Shown piece after piece: positions 14,518-25,388 of a stretch of 64,000 nt of DNA. The notes beneath the pieces are model-generated. The model saw nothing but the letters and a program-made list of their open reading frames with translations, made no database searches and had not been told where the DNA came from. Origin of the DNA: Psilocybe cubensis. Taxonomy: Eukaryota. The position numbers and the translations under genes are program-made. Numbering within the stretch: position 1 is the stretch's first letter; each line of letters starts with the position of its first letter. The DNA lies in assembly GCA_017499595.2 (NCBI GenBank), contig CM039007.1, forward strand, positions 1,240,001-1,304,000. Direction: 5' to 3'.

Positions 14518-17248
14518 GGGTGCCAGTAGGAAGATGGGCGTTTTCTAGCAGAATGTAGGCACTTTTATATTTTCCGCGGTGCCTTCCTTGATGCCATTGT
14601 TCACTCATTGTCTGCGACAAATGGTAGTGCACACAACAGCACGTGTAGGCCCTCAGAGTCATAAGAACCCACAAGTAATTGGTTCCGATGTTGATTTGTA
14701 GGCGTCGTCTTCTGTAGAGTTGTCGTTGTAGGTCTTTGAAAATGAAAAAAATTAACCTTGGATTAGGGTTTTTAGACGACTGAGTCAGTTTGTGTAGACG
14801 GAAATGTACGGTGGGAGTGTACTTGACGTTATGCATTAGTAGACGATCGATGCCTTGATGATAGATTGTTCAAATCAAGTTTAAATTAAGCCACACATTT
14901 TCCCAGGCTTACGGTACAGCCACTTCAACTTTTAGTAAAAATTTCAATCCTCGCTGCTGCCTCGCGGCTATGTTTGCACACTATCGCAGCCCATAGGAAC
15001 ATATCTTTCCCAACACGTTGTTCATCTTCAGGGAACGAGTCCGGCTTTACATCATTCGAGTGGATGCTTTTACGCTGGATGGCCCCTTAATCACACCTCG
15101 TGGCATATATCTAACTCGGGTTTGTATTATAGACTAGCTGTCTTCGATATAATTCTCGTAGTGTATTTTGATGTACGCGACCTACGGACATAAGAAGGGT
15201 GAGATCAGATGCTTTTCTTTAATTAGATAGGAAAATATATGATATTACGGTTGGCTAGATGGATGCGAAAAACATGTATTAAATAAGGTGAAGGGCCTAG
15301 ATATGAAGGGTCTCAGATTTGAGGCTTTCTCAATCGCAGAACTCAGGTTGAGGTTGTGTTTCAGAACCCTGCCTCTACCACATTCAGAAACATCTTTCAA
15401 ATTATTTACCATGCGCGTTCCAAAGCTCCCCTGGTGGATGGGAAGGTTAATCAAATCGCGTGAGTAGGGATGGAGTACATGAACGTACATGCGAACCGGG
15501 GCACTCGCACTCTCAAACCTCGAGGTTTGTAGGGCGGAGATACCGCGTTGACGGGTACCTACTCAGACGAAATCCATCGCGGATTTCCCAGGCTATGCCT
15601 AACACCTCGGTATGATGGTCCGTACTTAAATTATCGTGTGTAAATGTGATATGTGGCACGGAGAAGCCGTCGAAGAGCATTTCGGGAAAATAAGTAATTG
15701 GTGACGAGAACAGTACAAGAAAGTTCTGTTAGGCATGGCGCGATATAATTTCTCACTTCAAGGAATGCCACAAGCCGCATTACAACCTGTTCAGGGACGT
15801 ATATCAAAATGATTCTTTGCATGGTACTTCATTGATTTGATATTTCCTCTTCTCATATCGACAACTACAAAGCCTGAACCGAAAGTTACTACACTCTTGC
15901 TGATCCACAGAATGTCCGTATACGAAACCAATAACTTGTACATATGCGGGTTGACTCTGAAGATTCAGAGTTGTGTCAATGGGCAGCCCAAGCTGACTGG
16001 ACGGCAGCTAAACAGCAAGACGCTTGATTAGGAAGTTCAGATGTTGAGAGTAAGTATGCGTCGACTTACGAGCCGTATCCGTCCGTGGTAAATGGCCCGC
16101 AGCAGACATACGACACGGGGCCTAAAGAAAAGGGTGATTTAGTGTCAGAAATACTCTGGTATTCATGATAGAAAATAGACTTACATCTAATGCTCTATAT
16201 GAATGGTTGAAGTTCCGGAATGGTGCGGATTGTCAGCATCAGGGTAGTAGTACAAGTCAGAGAGAAGATATTCAGAAATGGATGCATACATTTGGACCTC
16301 CGCCTGAAACATGTAAATGCACCATGGTAGGCATTAAGCGGCATAATTAAAATACAAATACATAAATGGACATACACAGGATAAGCGCACTATCAGCGCT
16401 TGGAAGTGCCACCACTTGCGATATGGATGTAAGGACGCCGGCAACGAGAAAGAGTACAGTCTTCATGCTAAGTCTACAGATGGGGGACATCAAGACGTGT
16501 AGTAAAGGATTATATACGGTTTTCTGATGTCAGGGCAATGCGTTCCTTGGTTTACAGAGTGACACGGCAGTCATGGACGACTCGGCTAAGTGACTGAAGT
16601 TTAACAAACAAAATGAATTCGTGCCTTGATATTGAGCATGATAAAAATAGTCCAATACAAGCGCTGGTTGGGGTATTACATTAAGTTTTGAAAAAGAACC
16701 CAGGCTGTTCACATGTGCAAACCACACGACTTGACCCACGCCTGAACATAACGTACGAAGCATTCAGACTAACTTATATCTATTATCAGTGAACCGTCTG
16801 CACGCCAGCCCCTATCTCAAGTACGTGTTCCTGAATAATCGACATCACATGAGGATGCGCCAAGCGTAACGCGCCCACCCGTCGCGCTCAGTTGGCGCCG
16901 CTGACGCGGAGTTGTGTTATCAGACTTCGGTGAAAATACACATGGGACCGCTGGGACTGCGATTGGAGTCTGGATATGTCTACCTCCATTTGCGGTTTAG
17001 TTGTCTGGGGAAAGGACTCGGATGAGGGATGAGGGAATTATCCTTTTTCAATCAACTGTGTAGTACTACGTCAACTTCAAGGCGGTGCAGCACACAGTTT
17101 ATAGGTAGGCGTGTACGTACATACCCGGGTCAACGTTACGTTCTTAATACACCCAATAAAAGAAGAAAAGAAGAACACAGGAAACAGCCTGATTGTACTT
17201 TTTCACTTTTTCCACATACAGTTAGAAGCGCTTGATGACTCGCTCGTC

Positions 17249-17477
17249 CCAATGATTCGCGAGAAACACACGGGTTTGGAATAGCGACGGAGGCACTCTG
17301 TTCGCGCTCGGGCGTACAGAGTGCTCGAAAATACAAATTAGATATTATAGTGATTAAGTACACGTGGGGGAGCAGCATCGCGCATAGGCGGGGCTGCTCG
17401 TGAGCAAGGAAATGAGAAAACGCTACATATGGGGTGACATTGCACGAATGCGTGGCCACTTTGTCGAGGTCAAGGCT
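17249..17477 (-). repeat. Split direct repeat B2 (229 bp), 3' terminus of the element
   Basis: Matches 18595-18823 (CCAATGATTCGCGAG...GTCAAGGCT). Confidence 0.95.
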
Positions 17478-17503
17478 CTACATATCAGTCAAGGCTGTAC
17501 ATA

Positions 17504-18415
17504 TCAGTCACGGTTGCGCAAAATAGCATGCGCTAAGAAGAAAAGGCGTTGCAAATCGCGTTGTTCAGCGCTACTGCGTGCGCATTTAAGCAACCACTGC
17601 AGTTGCGCAATCAAGCCCATCACGAGTTCAAACGGCAAGGTGGCGAAGTGAACAGAATCGTCGATGAGCCGATGGCAAACTTCGATCTGGAAGTCTTGTA
17701 AAACGGGTGACGATTCCATGTTTGGGAACGGAGTTTGGGCTTGCAATTCTGCAGTAGGTTGGATGGGTGGATACAAGTCGGACGGCCAATTGATGGGAGG
17801 CAACACGCGTGGGATCAGAGTAGAACGGGGACGGAAATCGTTCGGTTGAGATTGTTGGTTATTGTAAGATGAGTAGTCGTCGTATTGTGTATAATCAGAG
17901 TAGTTGTTGTCATTGTGGGCAAGTGAGAGGGTGTTGCTGAGGGGAGGAGGTGATGCGGGTTGTGAAACAGCGGGTGAAATGACAGTGAGGGGAGGAGGTG
18001 ATGCGGGTTGTGAAACAGCGGGTGAAACGACAGTGGAGGACTCGCTGGGTTGGGGTGAAAAAGCATTGGAGGTTGCGTACATCCGTCGCAGTAGGACGGG
18101 GGTAGCAGGACGGGAGTGTGTAATGTTGTGTAAAGCAGCGACAGCATTATTCCAAGCAAGGTCGTCAGTGGAAGAGTTGAAAGTTTCTGTGGACGAGTGT
18201 TGGTGTAAAATGGCATTGATGGCTGCGGCATTGTTGGTGAAAAATTCCATTAAAGTTGCATCAGAATTTTCGTGGTTGGACGTGGTAGAAGGGGTGTTAT
18301 AAGAACGTGCCATGGGAGGAGAAGGGTGGGTTTTGAAAACAATGTTTTGGTGATTCGCTCGGAATGTGATAGAGCGGTTGGAAGAGCAATGTTTTTGCCC
18401 CCACCGTTTAGACAT
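17504..18415 (-). CDS. Ngaro accessory ORF4 of unknown function (303 aa; alternative start MARSYN at 18313)
   Basis: Intronless ORF filling the A2-B2 spacer. It has an in-frame 48-bp duplication, a disordered middle and a helical-looking C-terminus (LQDFQIEVCHRLIDDS...LAHAILRNRD). Confidence 0.65.
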   Translation of the reverse strand: MSKRWGQKHCSSNRSITFRANHQNIVFKTHPSPPMARSYNTPSTTSNHENSDATLMEFFTNNAAAINAILHQHSSTETFNSSTDDLAWNNAVAALHNITHSRPATPVLLRRMYATSNAFSPQPSESSTVVSPAVSQPASPPPLTVISPAVSQPASPPPLSNTLSLAHNDNNYSDYTQYDDYSSYNNQQSQPNDFRPRSTLIPRVLPPINWPSDLYPPIQPTAELQAQTPFPNMESSPVLQDFQIEVCHRLIDDSVHFATLPFELVMGLIAQLQWLLKCARSSAEQRDLQRLFFLAHAILRNRD

Positions 18416-18595
18416 TTACTGGAATGTGAAACCTCATGTGTGAGCTCATGCCGCTTGGGGCCGAGCAGAGGTTTGATCAACACCGTTTGTGCTCTCAGGC
18501 TGACGGTGGCAATGTATAAGGCGCTATTCACATTTCCTCGCGGTTTTCTCCAGAGCTTCTCATTGGATTTTTGTAATCTTCCTATTAAACTCAAC
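18331..18595 (-). repeat. Split direct repeat A2 (265 bp)
   Basis: Matches 23414-23678 and abuts B1, sharing one base at 18595. Confidence 0.95.
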
Positions 18596-18823
18596 CAATG
18601 ATTCGCGAGAAACACACGGGTTTGGAATAGCGACGGAGGCACTCTGTTCGCGCTCGGGCGTACAGAGTGCTCGAAAATACAAATTAGATATTATAGTGAT
18701 TAAGTACACGTGGGGGAGCAGCATCGCGCATAGGCGGGGCTGCTCGTGAGCAAGGAAATGAGAAAACGCTACATATGGGGTGACATTGCACGAATGCGTG
18801 GCCACTTTGTCGAGGTCAAGGCT
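18595..18823 (-). repeat. Split direct repeat B1 (229 bp)
   Basis: Matches 17249-17477. Confidence 0.95.
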
Positions 18824-18918
18824 AACCATTGAATTTTTTTTTTTTTTTTTTTATGATTTTGGATTAGAATGATGCGAAGTTTCAAAAAAGAAACTTCAAT
18901 AGAGGAGCGGGAAAGTGG

Positions 18919-19950
18919 TTAAGTATGAGTAGTAACATTTGGTGCGCGGGATTTGGCGTAGAGCAAACCCTGTATGATTGCGGGATGTCTTCGAATATAG
19001 ATTAGAAACGCCTGGGAAGACCATCGGCCCATCTGTTGTATGATTGTTGGAGGCACACCGTGTTCTGCTAGGGATGTGGCACCTCCTGCTCGCATACTTT
19101 GGCCAGCGATGGAGTTGGAAAAGAAACGTCGAAGCCTAGTCATAAAGAAATGCCGTGTGGGAATGGCACCTGTCGACGTGAGCCATAAAGGGCCGCTGGA
19201 GTTACCGAAAAGTTGATCTCGCGAACGTAAGTAGTTGGTGAAGTGCGACACAGGGTTATGTTGGAATTGAGTAGCTTTGACAATGACGTGGTTTCCTTGA
19301 AAAAACCGATCGGCCTTGTGGTATGGCAACCAAAATTCAAACTGGGAAGTGGATAAGCGTACGGAGCTGCGCATGGTGATTTTGCGCCAGTCACGAAGAC
19401 GTTTTTCGTCGGGTAGAGTCATCTCGCCAAGACGTAATAGGGCGAAAAAACCCGTCATGACCATAGAAAGAAAAAGTGAGTCGTCGTGGTCATTGGAGGT
19501 CGTGTAATGTTGCTTCAGTAATTGCAGATCGTCGAGAGTTAATGCTTCTTTGCGAGTTTGAGGGGTACCATGCCGTTTTTTGCAGCCAACCAAAGTTCGT
19601 TTTAACAACGGAGAGGTACGGGCCTGTCGGACATTGGGGAAATGAGGTTCTAGTTGGTGTACAATGCCAGACAAATAAGTTTCGACGGTGTGTATTTTGT
19701 TAAATGATGATTGGTAAGTCACGTATAACGAAAGGGTGTCGGGTGTTGGCTCTACGGGAATGTTGTGGTTATGAACAAAAGCCAGGTAGGAGTTAAGGGC
19801 GGAACCGTAGGCGTTTTCAGTGGAGATGTCAATGGCTTCCCCCAGAGCCAAAGCACGTTCGTGCTGTAATTTTTCGGCGGACCACACAGGGCGATGTGGC
19901 TGACGAGGGGGACGAACACGGGTGATTACAGTGTTCTTTCCAACGACCAT
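18919..19950 (-). CDS. Tyrosine recombinase (Ngaro ORF3)
   Basis: N-terminal core-binding region (YGSALNSYLAF). Catalytic motifs FALLRLGE (R), YHKADR (K), GQSMRAGGAT (HxxR position, with Q for H), MGRWSS and FLIYIR (Y). Confidence 0.95.
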   Translation of the reverse strand: MVVGKNTVITRVRPPRQPHRPVWSAEKLQHERALALGEAIDISTENAYGSALNSYLAFVHNHNIPVEPTPDTLSLYVTYQSSFNKIHTVETYLSGIVHQLEPHFPNVRQARTSPLLKRTLVGCKKRHGTPQTRKEALTLDDLQLLKQHYTTSNDHDDSLFLSMVMTGFFALLRLGEMTLPDEKRLRDWRKITMRSSVRLSTSQFEFWLPYHKADRFFQGNHVIVKATQFQHNPVSHFTNYLRSRDQLFGNSSGPLWLTSTGAIPTRHFFMTRLRRFFSNSIAGQSMRAGGATSLAEHGVPPTIIQQMGRWSSQAFLIYIRRHPAIIQGLLYAKSRAPNVTTHT

Positions 19951-22900
19951 GGAGGAGGTTGGAAAGGTGAAATTTCAAGTCTCGGTTCGATCGTCAGTGC
20001 AGTCGAGAACTGGGAGCGTGACAGAGCGTCTGCCACAGTATTTTCGTCACCTGGCACGTGTAAGATTCGTAGTTTAAGGTTCTTGTCAAGAACAAGGTCA
20101 ACGGAGGCTTTTAAAAGCTCGTTGAATTGAGGTGTACACGCCAGAGATGAAAATATTGCCACCGTATTCAAATTGTCGGTGAATATGGTAACTTTGTTTC
20201 CGTAACCAGCAATCTTGGCAACGTTTGCCAAGGCACAGTAAACACATAACGCTTCATAATAAAAGATAATGGATGTATTGCTTTGAAGAGGAGTTGAAGA
20301 ATAAAAGGCTTGAGCGGATGATGGGAACCAAAATCCCATTCCGTCAGGGCAAGCATCGCAATAGATCACAAAGTCGGATTGAGATACATCCCATTCCCGA
20401 GATTGCAGCAAGTGTACCCCGTCCGAATTGTCTAAATGTTTGATAGCCCATAGAAAATCATTGCGAATTTGGTCATTGACGCGAATATTGCGAAAAGGGT
20501 TGTATAAGCCAGCTGTCTTTGGGTAGAAATTATTCAGACAGGGACGCAAGAGGGGATAGACGTTCAGTGCCCAGTTTATCCACCCGGCCATTTGTTGCCA
20601 ATATTTAAGTTTGAAGTTGGTTGCTTTGCGACTAGGAGGCTTAATTGCCCACGTTTTCATTGCTTCTATTAATGCTTCTTTGGAATGAGAAGGCATAGCG
20701 AAAGTCATATGATTAGGATCAACTTCGACACCTATGACGGGCAGAATGTTTGCAGAAAGTTGTTTTTTCTCTTTGTGGGGGATGCCTAGTTCGTCCCAGA
20801 GACGGAGTAAAATCGCTTGATGATAAGGAAGATGTTTTTGGTAAGGTTCGTAATAAGATGTGTTGCCTTCGAGATCAAAACCCGAAGAGTCATCAACATA
20901 ATTGGCGAGGTAGTCGATACCGCGTTTGCGTGTTGCTATCCAGGCAACAAGTGCATTAAAAGCAATAAAAATAGACCCAGAAGCCGAATTTCCAAAGGCG
21001 TTGCATCTGTCAATGTAACGCAGGCCGTCAACAGTGTTAACTTGCTTTAATTGCCACAGCGGATGCATAGGTAGAAGACGATATGCTTCAGCAATATCAG
21101 ATTTCCACATTACGAGCTTATCGTCACCGTGTAAGGCACGAAAATGTAATAACATTTCGCCCAAATGACTCATATTATCAAGAGGATACCCCGTCACCTT
21201 ATCGTGATCAATCATAGAGTTGAGTGAGAATTTTCCAGCACTATGATCAGTCACAAGGCGCAAATCTACGCCGTTGGGTTTAGGAACCGCGTGCGCAGGC
21301 ATAGAATACATGCCGTCAAGTAGATCGGGACCAAAAGAGGTTGAGAACCGGTCCTTTAGTTGTTCTTCGTTAAGCTGAGATCGAAGAAATTCAGCTTTAC
21401 CATGATCACTTGGTGTAGGACGAGACTCGTCATGAGTTAACGGGAATGAAGAAGTATCAGCCCATGGCCAAAAACCATAGCGAAAACCATCGCAAACCGA
21501 TTTGACAAACGGTTGGTTTGGATGATCAACTAATAGGCTTTCAAAGACATCGACATTAATGGGAGTAATGATCTTGAACAAATCGGGATTTTTACTAATA
21601 GTTTGCATAGCGGGAACATTCTGATATTCTAGATTAGAGGGGCGAGATAGAGGCATAGCAGTTTCAGTCCAATCGGCGGCGGTTGGGGATAAATTAGGAT
21701 AAGCGGGCCATAGGTTATGCCTCAAGTAAGATGGCCGTGACCCTAAAGCAGCGGAAAATGGATTACTTGCAGCTTTCGACAGAGTGGCCGGATTTTCGGC
21801 AACGTTTGCACACATGTCGATATCGGCACTCGTTTTGTGGAAGGGGACATCCGCGTTCAGAGTTGAACCTGTTGCAGACATCGGGACGGCGTCCGTTGCG
21901 ATTGTTGTTGCCTGAACGTCGTGAGTTATGTTCGGAGTACTCGCGTCCGCCTGGGAGCAATATGGATGAGTAGAGTCGGAGGAATCTTCCATGGTCTGTA
22001 AGCGAGTAGTGTTGTCCACCAGCAACCTGGTTCCGAACGGCGATGTCGTAGAGTATGACTCGAGGGTGTTCAGACGGGGCACGCTCAAGGAATTCATCCT
22101 CGATTGATTCTCCGTATTCTCTGAGTTCCGCAGCTCGGTGAGGGAATGCGAACGCGGTGGCCTGAGATGCAATGCGCCATGCCGCCGACCAATCTGGTGC
22201 TGAGTGAACCTTTCGCTTCGGTTCAACGACTCCTGTGCGGATTTCGGCATTACCGACGCGAGTTGTTGCCTCTGTGTCAATTGACACGCGACATCGTGAT
22301 GACAAGCAGTGGTCGAGGCTGAGACTTTGGCCTCTGAAGACTTTTTCCCACTCAGACATCGGGAAATTCGCGGGCGCTTTAGGGGAGAGTGCAATGAAGC
22401 GTTTGGCGGCTGCAATGTCTGTAGAGTAGAGTCGAAGGAGTTGCAGGTTTTTGGTGATGTGAGGGTCGTCTTTAGTGGTGCATTCAAGGTTGCTTTCGAA
22501 CCACGGCATGTCGTGTTCGTAGAGTTTCGTTCGTTTAATTGAACTGGAGTGTGAATCTGGGGATTCTGAACGCGAATGTTTGTTTGACGATTGAAGGCTT
22601 TCGAGAATCGTGTCCAAGTCTTGTTCTTGTACAACGGAATGTTCAGGGTACGGTGGTAAATAAGGTGAGCGTGTGTGTCGGGAGTTGTGTGTTTGAATGG
22701 AGGGAGAGTGTGATTCCTGTCGGACATGCGAAATATGTTGCGAGTTGAGCCTCGAGGCGAAAGAAGGTTGTGGGGAAAGTTGGAAGAGTGATGTATTGGT
22801 TTCGACGGCTTTTCCTTTACCGTTGTATTCAACTGTTTGTAAGAAGGTGGACACGATACTGTCTTTGAGACTGTTGTCGACTGAGGAGTTGGATTCCAAT

Positions 22901-23348
22901 AGTTGGAGTCCTTGGGATAGTGCTTTGGTCTTTGACAAGTGTCGCGATTGGAATTGATGGACGATTCGACTGAGTTTTTGCTCAAGATGTTGTACTTCGG
23001 GTCGGTTTGATTCTCTGTCATGAAAGACGTCTCGCGCTCCAATTCGGCAGTCGCTTTCCTCTTCTCTCCTCTGACTTTGCGATTGAGTGAATTGTGCGGG
23101 GCGAAATCGCCCCTGACGTTGCGCAAATTCAAATTGGGTGACGTATTCAGGTTGATTGACACAACGTGACGGTCCGCCGAGCTGACACTCGTTGGATTGG
23201 GATGGTTCGTAGTTTTCTCTATGTCGATAGGAATGGCGGTCTGGAGATAAAGTGTTGGAGGACCCTTCGTTTCGTGGGAATTGGGACACGTCAAACGGTT
23301 CCTGATCGCCATTCGAGTTAAGAGTGGGTGAATGTTGAAGTTGGACAT
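19926..23348 (-). CDS. Reverse transcriptase / RNase H (Ngaro ORF2)
   Basis: AVPKPNGVDLRLVTDHS, WKSDIAEAYR, AFGNSASG, ANYVDD; RNase H motifs YCDAC, YEAL, FTDN, HVPGDENTVADALSR. Uninterrupted 1140-codon ORF. Confidence 0.95.
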   Translation of the reverse strand: MSNFNIHPLLTRMAIRNRLTCPNSHETKGPPTLYLQTAIPIDIEKTTNHPNPTSVSSADRHVVSINLNTSPNLNLRNVRGDFAPHNSLNRKVRGEKRKATAELERETSFMTENQTDPKYNILSKNSVESSINSNRDTCQRPKHYPKDSNYWNPTPQSTTVSKTVSCPPSYKQLNTTVKEKPSKPIHHSSNFPHNLLSPRGSTRNIFRMSDRNHTLPPFKHTTPDTHAHLIYHRTLNIPLYKNKTWTRFSKAFNRQTNIRVQNPQIHTPVQLNERNSTNTTCRGSKATLNAPLKTTLTSPKTCNSFDSTLQTLQPPNASLHSPLKRPRISRCLSGKKSSEAKVSASTTACHHDVACQLTQRQQLASVMPKSAQESLNRSERFTQHQIGRRHGALHLRPPRSHSLTELRNSENTENQSRMNSLSVPRLNTLESYSTTSPFGTRLLVDNTTRLQTMEDSSDSTHPYCSQADASTPNITHDVQATTIATDAVPMSATGSTLNADVPFHKTSADIDMCANVAENPATLSKAASNPFSAALGSRPSYLRHNLWPAYPNLSPTAADWTETAMPLSRPSNLEYQNVPAMQTISKNPDLFKIITPINVDVFESLLVDHPNQPFVKSVCDGFRYGFWPWADTSSFPLTHDESRPTPSDHGKAEFLRSQLNEEQLKDRFSTSFGPDLLDGMYSMPAHAVPKPNGVDLRLVTDHSAGKFSLNSMIDHDKVTGYPLDNMSHLGEMLLHFRALHGDDKLVMWKSDIAEAYRLLPMHPLWQLKQVNTVDGLRYIDRCNAFGNSASGSIFIAFNALVAWIATRKRGIDYLANYVDDSSGFDLEGNTSYYEPYQKHLPYHQAILLRLWDELGIPHKEKKQLSANILPVIGVEVDPNHMTFAMPSHSKEALIEAMKTWAIKPPSRKATNFKLKYWQQMAGWINWALNVYPLLRPCLNNFYPKTAGLYNPFRNIRVNDQIRNDFLWAIKHLDNSDGVHLLQSREWDVSQSDFVIYCDACPDGMGFWFPSSAQAFYSSTPLQSNTSIIFYYEALCVYCALANVAKIAGYGNKVTIFTDNLNTVAIFSSLACTPQFNELLKASVDLVLDKNLKLRILHVPGDENTVADALSRSQFSTALTIEPRLEISPFQPPPWSLERTL

Positions 23349-23355
23349 TATGCAT
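21763..23355 (-). CDS. Gag-like protein (Ngaro ORF1)
   Basis: First ATG at 23355 (MHNVQ). Core FPMSEWEKVF..WSAAW..FAFPHRAAELREY..VILYDIAVR. C-terminal CNRFN..C..C.YRH.C..C...H...C zinc fingers are typical of DIRS/Ngaro gag. Confidence 0.9.
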   Translation of the reverse strand: MHNVQLQHSPTLNSNGDQEPFDVSQFPRNEGSSNTLSPDRHSYRHRENYEPSQSNECQLGGPSRCVNQPEYVTQFEFAQRQGRFRPAQFTQSQSQRREEESDCRIGARDVFHDRESNRPEVQHLEQKLSRIVHQFQSRHLSKTKALSQGLQLLESNSSVDNSLKDSIVSTFLQTVEYNGKGKAVETNTSLFQLSPQPSFASRLNSQHISHVRQESHSPSIQTHNSRHTRSPYLPPYPEHSVVQEQDLDTILESLQSSNKHSRSESPDSHSSSIKRTKLYEHDMPWFESNLECTTKDDPHITKNLQLLRLYSTDIAAAKRFIALSPKAPANFPMSEWEKVFRGQSLSLDHCLSSRCRVSIDTEATTRVGNAEIRTGVVEPKRKVHSAPDWSAAWRIASQATAFAFPHRAAELREYGESIEDEFLERAPSEHPRVILYDIAVRNQVAGGQHYSLTDHGRFLRLYSSILLPGGREYSEHNSRRSGNNNRNGRRPDVCNRFNSERGCPLPQNECRYRHVCKRCRKSGHSVESCK

Positions 23356-23413
23356 AATACAGTGAAGATGAGATAGCTGTAAGTTATCGATGAAAAGCAA
23401 GGCTTTTAAATCC

Positions 23414-23678
23414 TTTTGAAAACAATGTTTTGGTGATTCGCTCGGAATGTGATAGAGCGGTTGGAAGAGCAATGTTTTTGCCCCCACCGTTTAGACATTT
23501 ACTGGAATGTGAAACCTCATGTGTGAGCTCATGCCGCTTGGGGCCGAGCAGAGGTTTGATCAACACCGTTTGTGCTCTCAGGCTGACGGTGGCAATGTAT
23601 AAGGCGCTATTCACATTTCCTCGCGGTTTTCTCCAGAGCTTCTCATTGGATTTTTGTAATCTTCCTATTAAACTCAAC
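23414..23678 (-). repeat. Split direct repeat A1 (265 bp), 5' terminus and probable promoter
   Basis: Matches 18331-18595. The minus strand contains CCAAT and a TATA-like TTATACAT; the promoter role is inferred. Confidence 0.95.
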
Positions 23679-24219: not shown

Positions 24220-25388
24220 TATGGCTGCCCAAGTGGGGAAATATTCCCCGTAAACTTATTTAGGTATTTTTCTTACTGCGTGAATTTGTAAAAAATATGT
24301 TGGAGTGCGGAAACATTTTTTGAGTGCGCAGATTGTTTTCTAGCTTAGCCGTAAATATATTTGATTGCGCGGAAACATATTTTGGACATATTTTGCTAGC
24401 GCACGTAAATTTTTACTGCCCTCAATTATATTTAATGCATAAATCCTATGCGCGTAAAAACATTTTAAGCCCCAAACAAATATTTCGATGCGCGGAAAAC
24501 ATTGTTCAATTGCACTATTTCTAGCCTAAAGTCACCAGCCGTTATGCCGAGATTATGTAAAATGATCTGAAATGGCACCTCGGCAGACGCAAATGAGGTC
24601 AAGCTCCGACTGTTTTCTACAAAATAAATAGCTATTCTCTATTCATTACCACTTTATAGAGAGATATAACAGCTTCTGTAGTAGTACATATGTGTTAACT
24701 ACACACTACAGGTCACTGTGAGGACTCCCCATTAGTAGTACAGCCTGTACGCCATTTAAGACACCTCAGGTACTGTGTAAAAATAACTGTGGGAAAGACA
24801 TCAATCAGTACATCTGTGTGTGTGGTATGTGCATTGGTGCATCTGTAGAGTCAGGCATAGTTAAATACGATTTAAAAACATAGAAAGACATTTATTCAAC
24901 AATAATTAATGGGTACTAAGACACCGAGCACAGCAATGACAAATGTGAAAGAGGATTAGTGACTGCAAGCAAAGCGAAATTGAACAGTCGGAGATTGAAC
25001 TCATTTACGTCTGCCGAAGTGCCATTTTGGATCATTTTACATAATCTCGGCAATCACGGCTTCCCACTTCACATAAGAATCAGTGACTGTGAATAATGTT
25101 TTCCGCACAGTGAAAGGTTTGTTCAGTGCGCAAAATGTATTTACGCGCATGTATTTTACACAGTAAATATATTTTGGGGAGACCATAATGCACTCGCGCA
25201 TGTAAATTATGCGAAAAATATGTTTCCGCGCAGTCAATTTTGTTTACGGACTCGTCAAATTTACCTCGAAATCAATCCGGGCACCAAACAAATGTTTCCG
25301 CGCATAAATTTTGTTCTATTCTTGACGCACTTCTCAAAAATAAGGAAATTATATTTACGGGGAATATTTCCCCACTTGGGCAGCCATA
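24220..25388. mobile_element. Non-autonomous TIR DNA transposon, IS3EU-like (1169 bp)
   Basis: Perfect 35-bp TIRs TATGGCTGCCCAAGTGGGGAAATATTCCCCGTAAA (24220-24254 / 25354-25388). Flanking direct repeat ACGCAC (6 bp; 12 bp also fits because the target is tandem). Mirrored subterminal TGCGCGGAAACAT motifs and no transposase. Confidence 0.85.

Follow-up and report, generated by a model that had tools for sequence, protein, structure and literature searches.

Does the spacer between the last two repeats of an Ngaro-type retrotransposon in the mushroom Psilocybe cubensis hold a gene of its own, and, if it does, where does that gene come from, how would it be expressed and what kind of protein would it encode? 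The element lies on the minus strand of a 64,000-nt stretch of contig CM039007.1 (GenBank assembly GCA_017499595.2, positions 1,240,001 to 1,304,000; the whole stretch is called the window here, and positions are counted from its first letter). Its two pairs of split direct repeats are A1 and A2, and B1 and B2. Three core genes, coding for a gag-like protein, for a putative reverse transcriptase and RNase H (RT/RH; the pol frame) and for a tyrosine recombinase (YR), stand between A1 and B1, and B1 and A2 adjoin with a 1-nt overlap. A2 is not directly joined to B2, unlike in the B1A2B2 order drawn for described Ngaro elements; instead, an 853-nt gap separates them and is occupied by an open reading frame (ORF) in the sense of the element, designated ORF4 (Table 1). 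Positions 17249 to 18595 are exactly B2, this spacer and A2. Taken as a whole, the evidence leans towards ORF4 being a genuine accessory gene, carried by an Ngaro that was active recently and situated in a slot that is conserved in its lineage.

The element is of the Ngaro type (DIRS order), considering its split direct repeats, its YR, the lack of any methyltransferase match and the position of the internal repeats 3' of YR (YR stop at 18919, B1 start at 18823). Searches with Pfam models found no methyltransferase, Dam or other, at an E value of ≤1 over the full-length pol frame and none at ≤10 over its RT/RH part. A preliminary description, made from the sequence alone, had read the element as two parallel units, A1-[gag/RT/YR]-B1 and A2-[ORF4]-B2, with a spacer of ~850 bp almost filled by a 303-codon ORF, and had noted that one ATG inside repeat A opens a 30-codon upstream ORF (uORF; ending in VFKRI*) in A1 and runs into ORF4 in A2. 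All of this was borne out. A1 and A2 are 100% identical over 265 nt, as are B1 and B2 over 229 nt, and the long form of ORF4 (18415..17504) starts 84 nt inside A2, ends 26 nt short of B2 and opens with the A2 copy of the ATG that opens the uORF in A1. No second copy of the element was found within the 64-kb window.

The length of the frame and its coding signals were compared with randomized sequences. The sense strand of the spacer is poor in G (15%) and in stop codons, with stops at no more than 5 places over 912 nt in the +1 frame; still, a sense-strand open frame of at least 303 codons appeared in only 3 of 5000 dinucleotide-preserving shuffles of A2 plus spacer, and in the same 3 when all six frames were counted. 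For the coding tests the null consisted of 5000 Markov simulations that were open by construction, so that openness alone could not yield a coding signal. The three-base periodicity of ORF4 (chi2 of 25.7) was matched by 4 of these simulations, and that of the part from methionine 35 (M35) onwards (29.5) by 3 of the 5000. The heterogeneity of bases among codon positions amounted to 8.5 per 100 codons in ORF4, compared with 9.8 in gag, 11.1 in RT and 4.1 in YR. Moreover, when codon log-likelihoods were derived from gag, RT and YR of the same element, with stop codons excluded, ORF4 scored +0.107 in frame 1 versus −0.146 and −0.078 in the other frames, and the value of the form starting at M35 was reached by none of the 5000 simulations. 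This stop-free score with its null replaced a first codon-usage test, which was dropped after stop-codon penalties were found to dominate it. The 48-nt tandem duplication inside ORF4, moreover, preserves the frame. With these signals, ORF4 is probably a genuine coding gene.

The start codon was assigned by comparison with three relatives that have complete split repeats (L003, L015 and L018; described below). In all four elements, including that of the window, the first ATG past A1 opens gag (at +29 to +59 nt) and the first ATG past A2 opens the ORF in the spacer (at +18 to +39 nt). Because of this first-ATG rule, ORF4 would start at M35 (position 18313), and its translation from there as a 269-aa protein is the most likely form. 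The ATG inside repeat A, from which the preliminary description had ORF4 begin, does keep the frame open, but it is not the likely start: none of the three relatives examined has an in-frame ATG to match it, and diverged A copies among raw reads (run X11, below) have a stop at codon 19 of the leader that it would open. The exact 269-aa form is present at NCBI on two contigs. The annotation of the species itself has a 213-aa hypothetical protein, JR316_0007456, which comprises ORF4 residues 35 to 239 and nine other residues; a spliced ORF4 was considered and rejected, as no GT-AG intron in the window gives this 213-aa model.

To what extent the element and its spacer move was assessed by mapping public runs onto positions 16800 to 18640 of the window, with X11 consisting of raw DNA reads and X3 and X7 of contigs. 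An empty site, in which position 17249 is joined directly to 23679, was present in 33 X11 reads and one X7 contig (checked by eye). The joint has one shared base and no target-site duplication, and these reads fix the boundary between element and flank at 17249. In X11, X3 and X7, loose ends where A and B meet the flanks led into other flanking sequences. Measured against the single-copy flank, spacer depth was ~12- to 13-fold in X3 (186 to 207 versus 15.4), ~2.2- to 2.7-fold in X7 and ~1-fold in X11, ratios that only hint at differences in copy number, since summed contig depth is not copy number. No indel was found in the spacer in any of the three runs. The empty site and the strain-differing depth together indicate recent movement with the spacer included. 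Thus, the element is young, polymorphic in its insertion and recently mobile, and the spacer is part of the mobile unit; the element appears to be active now, with ~1 to 13 copies suggested by depth.

Two further features of the read data concern the repeats. In X11, A and B (17249 to 17477 and 18331 to 18595) reach ~3 times the flank depth, and they show minority variants in 6 to 46% of the reads, mostly in ~20 to 45%, with C>T or G>A at 25 of the 42 variable places. These variants point to a diverged sister subfamily whose spacer fails mapping at ≥80% likeness, and their bias towards transitions could stem from methylation or deamination of cytosines. In X3, a contig across the B/A junction (18566 to 18624) has a depth of 292, close to the 305 of A, where about half would be expected for plain full-length elements; tandem arrays, circles or permuted copies may account for this, as may a depth artifact of short contigs.

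Relatives of the element were sought by scanning metagenome contigs with an alignment of 34 YR sequences, which yielded 80 loci. By self-comparison, the split repeats are complete and the A2-B2 spacer is long in three of them, L003 (723 nt), L015 (959 nt) and L018 (672 nt). The layout of L019 is like that of these three, and L002, L028, L077 and L010 have matching distances between B1 and B2, while the B1-B2 spacing is 431 to 503 nt in the short-spacer relatives L044, L049, L050 and L052. The A2-B2 spacer of the long-spacer relatives holds a sense ORF of 150 to 254 aa, designated ORF-S. A profile of ORF-S matched nine loci at an E value of ≤1e-30 (L019, L018, L028, L003, L002, L015, L077, L010 and L029) and a further one, L073, weakly. 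In ten loci, an A copy that comes after a B copy 3' of YR is itself followed by 600 nt or more, and nine of these loci carry ORF-S; in the tenth, L011, gag follows A, and the contig has identical 127-nt ends, which indicate a circular or tandem assembly. The ORF-S of L010 is truncated, and that of L029 belongs to a copy whose YR holds three stops. In addition, 15 further ORF-S proteins (P0123-P0137), all of metagenomic origin and with neither a name nor a Pfam domain, were found in a large protein collection, and no Pfam family matched the eight aligned members encoded at loci (L029 included). L019 has an extra B copy directly before A1.

ORF-S is a fast-evolving gene under purifying selection. 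In three close pairs among L018, L019 and L028, with synonymous divergence (dS) of 0.6 to 1.0, the ratio of nonsynonymous to synonymous divergence (dN/dS) was 0.18, 0.17 and 0.15, with bootstrap upper bounds of 0.24 to 0.28, and a ratio of 1 was not reached in any of 500 replicates. The aligned bodies contain a single internal indel, of 3 nt, and the gaps of 72 and 75 nt correspond to the later start codon of L028. At the same time, dN in these pairs is about five to seven times as high in ORF-S as in YR, and between subgroups ORF-S is 24 to 38% identical, compared with 74 to 80% for YR. The protein has a basic MRxxSKK N terminus and a nearly invariant core, C..I..VA.SHGF; its structural model, with a mean predicted local distance difference test score (pLDDT) of 56, is mostly disordered and contains only two confident short helices. 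In the relatives, therefore, the positional counterpart of ORF4 is neither neutral nor generally disrupted (dN/dS of 0.15 to 0.18).

ORF4 resembles ORF-S in its slot and strand, in its start at the first ATG past A2, in its end shortly before B2, in the C-rich start of the spacer and in being predicted as mostly disordered with short helices, the model of ORF4 being of low confidence. It differs in being longer (269 to 303 versus 150 to 254 aa) and in having neither the basic N terminus nor the C..I..VA.SHGF core. The spacer-start motif, TTTCnnnnCCCnCCC (CCCnCCC, C-rich), is common to the window and five relatives; apart from this motif, nucleotide similarity between the spacer of the window and any of the 80 loci is limited to short words. 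The sequence at the junction of the repeats is conserved as well. Its core, ATCATTGNTNGNGTTTAA, has a single match in the window, right across B1/A2, against 0 expected by chance. The pattern recurs in 14 of the 80 loci, the short-spacer L044 and L049 among them, and spans the B/A junction in six aligned elements; it may be the site of the recombinase or the junction of a circle. A YR tree (58 rows, quick search, midpoint root; 23 loci, among them L010, L029, L076, L077, L044 and L049, were dropped for stops or a short YR match) placed the window in a set of 25 rows together with all six ORF-S rows kept (support of 97 in the Shimodaira-Hasegawa-like approximate likelihood ratio test) and separately from the two short-spacer rows retained. 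No relative has a YR that is more than 66% identical to that of the window. Judged by layout and phylogeny, this element lineage most likely conserves a slot in which a long spacer between A2 and B2 contains a single sense ORF.

Several results weigh against ORF4 being such a conserved gene. The seed profile of ORF-S did not match ORF4 in hmmsearch at an E value of ≤10, and neither phmmer nor BLASTP found anything between ORF4 and ORF-S. The alignment by hhalign had a P of 0.12 and covered only an 11-residue stretch with 'DLQ[KR]LF'. Against a 23-sequence ORF-S profile, the score of ORF4 was reached by 1677 of 2000 of its own shuffles, and that of its C-terminal 75 aa by 137 of 2000. General divergence does not explain this blank, because the gag of the window is readily matched in relatives (E value of 3e-86); the one ground for a divergence beyond recognition is the high rate of ORF-S. 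In the quick, midpoint-rooted YR tree the window also stands on a long branch (0.77). Moreover, no homologue of ORF4 beyond the P. cubensis annotation itself was found either in a word-index search of 5.8 billion proteins or in an exhaustive phmmer search of 1.84 billion representatives, and the AlphaFold2 single-sequence model of ORF4 is poor (mean pLDDT of 43, mostly disordered, with few short helices). Two relatives with an intact YR, L025 and L064, consist of A, core and B only, with no A2, spacer or B2 in at least 2.7 kb downstream, forms that are as expected from recombination between B1 and B2 or from integration of a single-unit circle. Within P. cubensis, the two single-nucleotide polymorphisms (SNPs) of the spacer in X11 both change an amino acid (R195C, and P140T within the tandem repeat). 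These are the only two variable spacer places in copies that are otherwise near-identical, and because of this near-identity the intact state of ORF4 in the copies is uninformative on selection on ORF4.

Two resemblances noted by eye, between EVCHRLIDDSVHF and the ORF-S core and between 'DLQRLF' and 'DLQ[KR]LF', were rejected, as neither stood up in the hhalign and shuffle tests. Weighing both sides, we find it somewhat probable that ORF4 is orthologous to ORF-S and has diverged past recognition. A competing view is a lineage-specific replacement, in which the slot is inherited and its content, arisen de novo in a stop-poor spacer or captured from elsewhere, is unrelated to ORF-S and may or may not be functional. 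Such a replacement would readily account for the failure of every similarity test between ORF4 and ORF-S while gag, pol and YR are easily matched, for the greater length of ORF4 and its missing N-terminal and core motifs, and for the absence of homologues from both of the large protein searches. Yet the spacer-start motif and the first-ATG rule are held in common with the relatives, the codon usage of ORF4 fits that of the element's own genes, which is unexpected for fresh noncoding or captured DNA, and the ORF-S subgroups themselves share only 24 to 38% identity; we therefore regard replacement as unlikely.

If ORF4 is a real accessory gene in a conserved slot, as we favor, A would act as a shared 5' leader or promoter and B as a shared 3' trailer for both units, and A2-ORF4-B2 would be a second expression unit giving rise to a subgenomic mRNA of ~1.1 to 1.2 kb. 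That A2 drives a transcript of its own is a possibility suggested by the exact duplication of the repeats, to which we give slightly less than an even chance. The main alternative on expression is that ORF4 is a real gene but has no promoter in A2, its protein being made from full-length RNA of the element through splicing, reinitiation or internal ribosome entry. Retroviruses and long terminal repeat (LTR) elements commonly express 3' ORFs via spliced subgenomic RNAs, which lends this route some plausibility, and splicing of the A1 end onto the spacer start would produce an RNA with the very sequence of A2-spacer. However, a GT lies right after the end of A1 in only one of four elements (L003), and A2 is already an exact copy of whatever drives A1, so this route, too, seems improbable to us.

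A more skeptical explanation is that the spacer is needed only in cis, as a template for replication or recombination, and that ORF4 is a chance or decaying frame that yields no protein. The G-poor and stop-poor sense strand, the low complexity and predicted disorder of the ORF4 protein, the nonsynonymous nature of both SNPs and the cassette-free A-core-B forms among the relatives would all fit a purely cis-acting spacer, but the tests of length, periodicity and codon usage (each with P < 0.001) and the ORF under purifying selection in the same slot of nine relatives make it quite improbable. Least probable is the idea, raised in the preliminary description as a satellite unit, that A2-ORF4-B2 is a separate nonautonomous unit multiplying as solo A-ORF4-B through the Ngaro machinery in the manner of SIRE of Trypanosoma cruzi, which in the accessible part of PMC6681497 is A2 plus ~30 bp plus B2 of VIPER: although the contig depth ratios in X3 (A/spacer of ~1.5 to 1.6 and B/spacer of ~1.6 to 1.8) lie under the 2.0 expected for plain full elements, X7 gave ~1.7 to 2.0 and ~1.8 to 2.2 by the same kind of summed depth, which does not equal copy number, the raw reads of X11 lent no support, since reads from A into the gag leader (67) exceed the spacer depth (~30) and cores are thus not rarer than cassettes, and in the relatives the cassette is always attached 3' of YR.

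With respect to the protein itself, ORF4 matched no Pfam family at an E value of ≤1, including hydrolase, SGNH hydrolase and methylase families, in agreement with the preliminary description, which had recognized no hydrolase or methylase motif. No usable match was found in the ESM Atlas, and a Foldseek comparison of the ORF4 model with the PDB gave 0 matches at an E value of ≤0.001 (best E value of 1.5), a result that is uninformative at a pLDDT of 43. Going by these models and searches, the ORF4 protein is presumably nonenzymatic and mostly disordered with a few short helices, adaptor-like rather than a catalyst, and it could bind a host or element partner and act in targeting, nucleic acid handling or evasion of silencing. 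The earlier proposal of an undescribed accessory protein thus fared well as far as the reality of the gene is concerned, given the coding signals and the selected ORF in the slot of the relatives, and both the anti-silencing or regulatory role given there as an example and the action of the duplicated repeats as promoter and terminator are putative. A broader and tentative view, which we consider rather doubtful in its entirety, is that in a basidiomycete clade of Ngaro the split repeats would be both expression signals and replication templates, with two transcription units, the second of which would encode a fast-evolving, selected and disordered protein that deals with the host, for instance in anti-silencing or target choice; ORF4 would be its most diverged known form.

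The arrangement was further compared with known systems, for which the statements below are limited to the accessible parts of the papers cited by PMC number. Ngaro elements are described as A1-[gag, RT/RH, YR]-B1A2B2 with three ORFs, for example, types 1 to 4 of Cafeteria burkhardae (PMC8547959), and clades 1 to 4 of fungal Ngaro have been surveyed (PMC3783388). In the accessible text of that survey, no further ORF is mentioned, and the terms 'additional ORF', 'ORF4' and 'unknown function' are absent. The element studied here is like canonical Ngaro in its A1-B1-A2-B2 repeats, its gag-like, putative RT/RH and YR ORFs, the absence of a methyltransferase, the internal repeats 3' of YR and the lack of a target-site duplication, and like fungal Ngaro in its basidiomycete host, but 853 nt separate A2 from B2 and contain an ORF of 269 to 303 codons. 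A fourth ORF in an Ngaro element, with function unproven, is also known from animals: in Xenopus DIRS-53_XT and DIRS-54_XT, an SGNH hydrolase ORF comes after YR, and all of the reading frames overlap (PMC9210276). That ORF has a recognizable SGNH domain and is presumably placed before B1, in contrast to ORF4, which lies past A2 and has no Pfam match. In nematode-form Pat1-like elements and Kangaroo (PAT-like), the internal repeats are situated between the methyltransferase and YR (PMC4157794), so that these elements have in common with the present one split direct repeats and coding sequence to either side of the internal repeats. The gene in their second compartment, however, is the recombinase itself, and a methyltransferase domain is present, whereas here all enzymes are in the first compartment and a nonenzymatic orphan ORF is in the second. 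In SIRE/VIPER of T. cruzi, the A2-(internal region)-B2 block inside a split-direct-repeat element is likewise recognized as a unit of its own (PMC6681497 and PMC12278014), but SIRE, which is dispersed as solo copies, has an internal region of ~30 bp that is noncoding, while here this region is 853 nt long and coding. In the literature searched, with the founding Ngaro papers and supplementary files lying outside that scope, no Ngaro element was found described as having an ORF between its A2 and B2; the novelty of this ORF is limited to the literature covered.

Tyrosine recombinase retrotransposons are poorly understood. Beyond gag, RT/RH, YR and the unexplained methyltransferase and hydrolase domains, no accessory proteins were found described in the literature covered. 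The A2-B2 gene slot offers a selected and fast-changing protein flanked by exact copies of the 5' and 3' repeats, and the slot and the duplicated repeats together provide a concrete, testable model of subgenomic gene expression in such elements. Moreover, the P. cubensis element is a tractable system, with an empty site, insertion sites that differ between strains and copy numbers of ~1 to 13 suggested by depth.

Table 1. Features of the Ngaro-type element in the window
Feature	Positions	Strand	Remarks
Whole Ngaro-type element	17249..23678	-	6,430 nt; order A1-gag-pol-YR-B1-A2-spacer(ORF4)-B2; delimited by repeats and empty-site reads
Repeat A1, element 5' end	23414..23678	-	265 nt; 5 ATGs, the last at A position 181
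30-codon uORF (MSKRW...VFKRI*)	23406..23498	-	opened in A1 by the last ATG of A (23498)
gag-like ORF	21763..23355	-	530 aa; first ATG past A1 (+59 nt)
pol frame (RT with YVDD, RNase H)	19926..23348	-	1140 aa; ATG 7 nt after gag ATG
YR ORF	18919..19950	-	343 aa; homologues found; Pfam Phage_integrase weak
Repeat B1	18595..18823	-	229 nt
B-end/A-start junction core ATCATTGGTTGAGTTTAA	18585..18602	-	conserved pattern
Repeat A2	18331..18595	-	265 nt; putative leader/promoter of second unit
ORF4, long form	17504..18415	-	303 codons + TGA; ATG inside A2
ORF4, likelier form	17504..18313	-	269 aa from M35, first ATG past A2 (+18 nt)
A2-B2 spacer	17478..18330	-	853 nt; begins CCCACCC (18330-18324)
48-nt tandem duplication in ORF4	17938..18033	-	2 copies, 1 mismatch; in frame, 16 codons, VSPAVSQPASPPPL
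Repeat B2, element 3' end	17249..17477	-	229 nt; putative trailer/terminator of second unit

For YR, 1319 homologues were found at an E value of ≤1e-5, the best with 66% identity; two of them are named 'Tyr recombinase domain-containing protein' in UniRef, and the homologues that carry a species name among the best 120 of the 1319 are two, from Agrocybe and Hebeloma. In the 34-sequence alignment, R173, R287, G308-R309-W310 and Y318 of YR are invariant, and its match to Pfam Phage_integrase (E value of 0.041) lies under the cutoff. The gag ORF is 33 to 47% identical to gag frames of relatives (BLASTP, E values down to 3e-86) and matched no Pfam family. The RT/RH part of pol is 49 to 62% identical over ~580 aa to the pol of YR-linked relatives; its match to Pfam RT_RNaseH is weak (E value of 0.04, under the cutoff), Pfam RVT_1 did not match the RT, and a phmmer search of the PDB returned nothing relevant.

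The gag and pol frames start 7 nt apart (ATGnnnnATG; 23348 to 23355 in the window), and the pol frame is open across the entire gag ORF, with an overlap of ~1.2 to 1.6 kb. The same offset of +7 was seen in 8 of the 12 relatives checked (L018, L019, L015, L022, L007, L001, L039 and L043), and in 26 of the 39 relatives listed the RT match begins at least 430 residues into an open segment of the pol frame. The gag frame is much better conserved (E value of 1e-86) than the overlapping N terminus of pol (1e-17). The recurrent 7-nt offset of the ATGs, the open pol frame and the better conservation of gag together suggest that pol may be expressed by leaky scanning and has a long overprinted N-terminal region.

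A run of ~20 A residues lies between the YR stop and B1 (~18826 to 18846, minus strand), and it was also seen as a T run in loose ends of three of the public runs. Just past the 5' end of the element, positions 24220 to 25388 contain nested inverted repeats, one pair of 42 nt with 93% identity (24220 to 24261 and 25347 to 25388) and a second of 197 nt with 70% identity (24349 to 24545 and 25053 to 25249), which may represent another element, with terminal inverted repeats.

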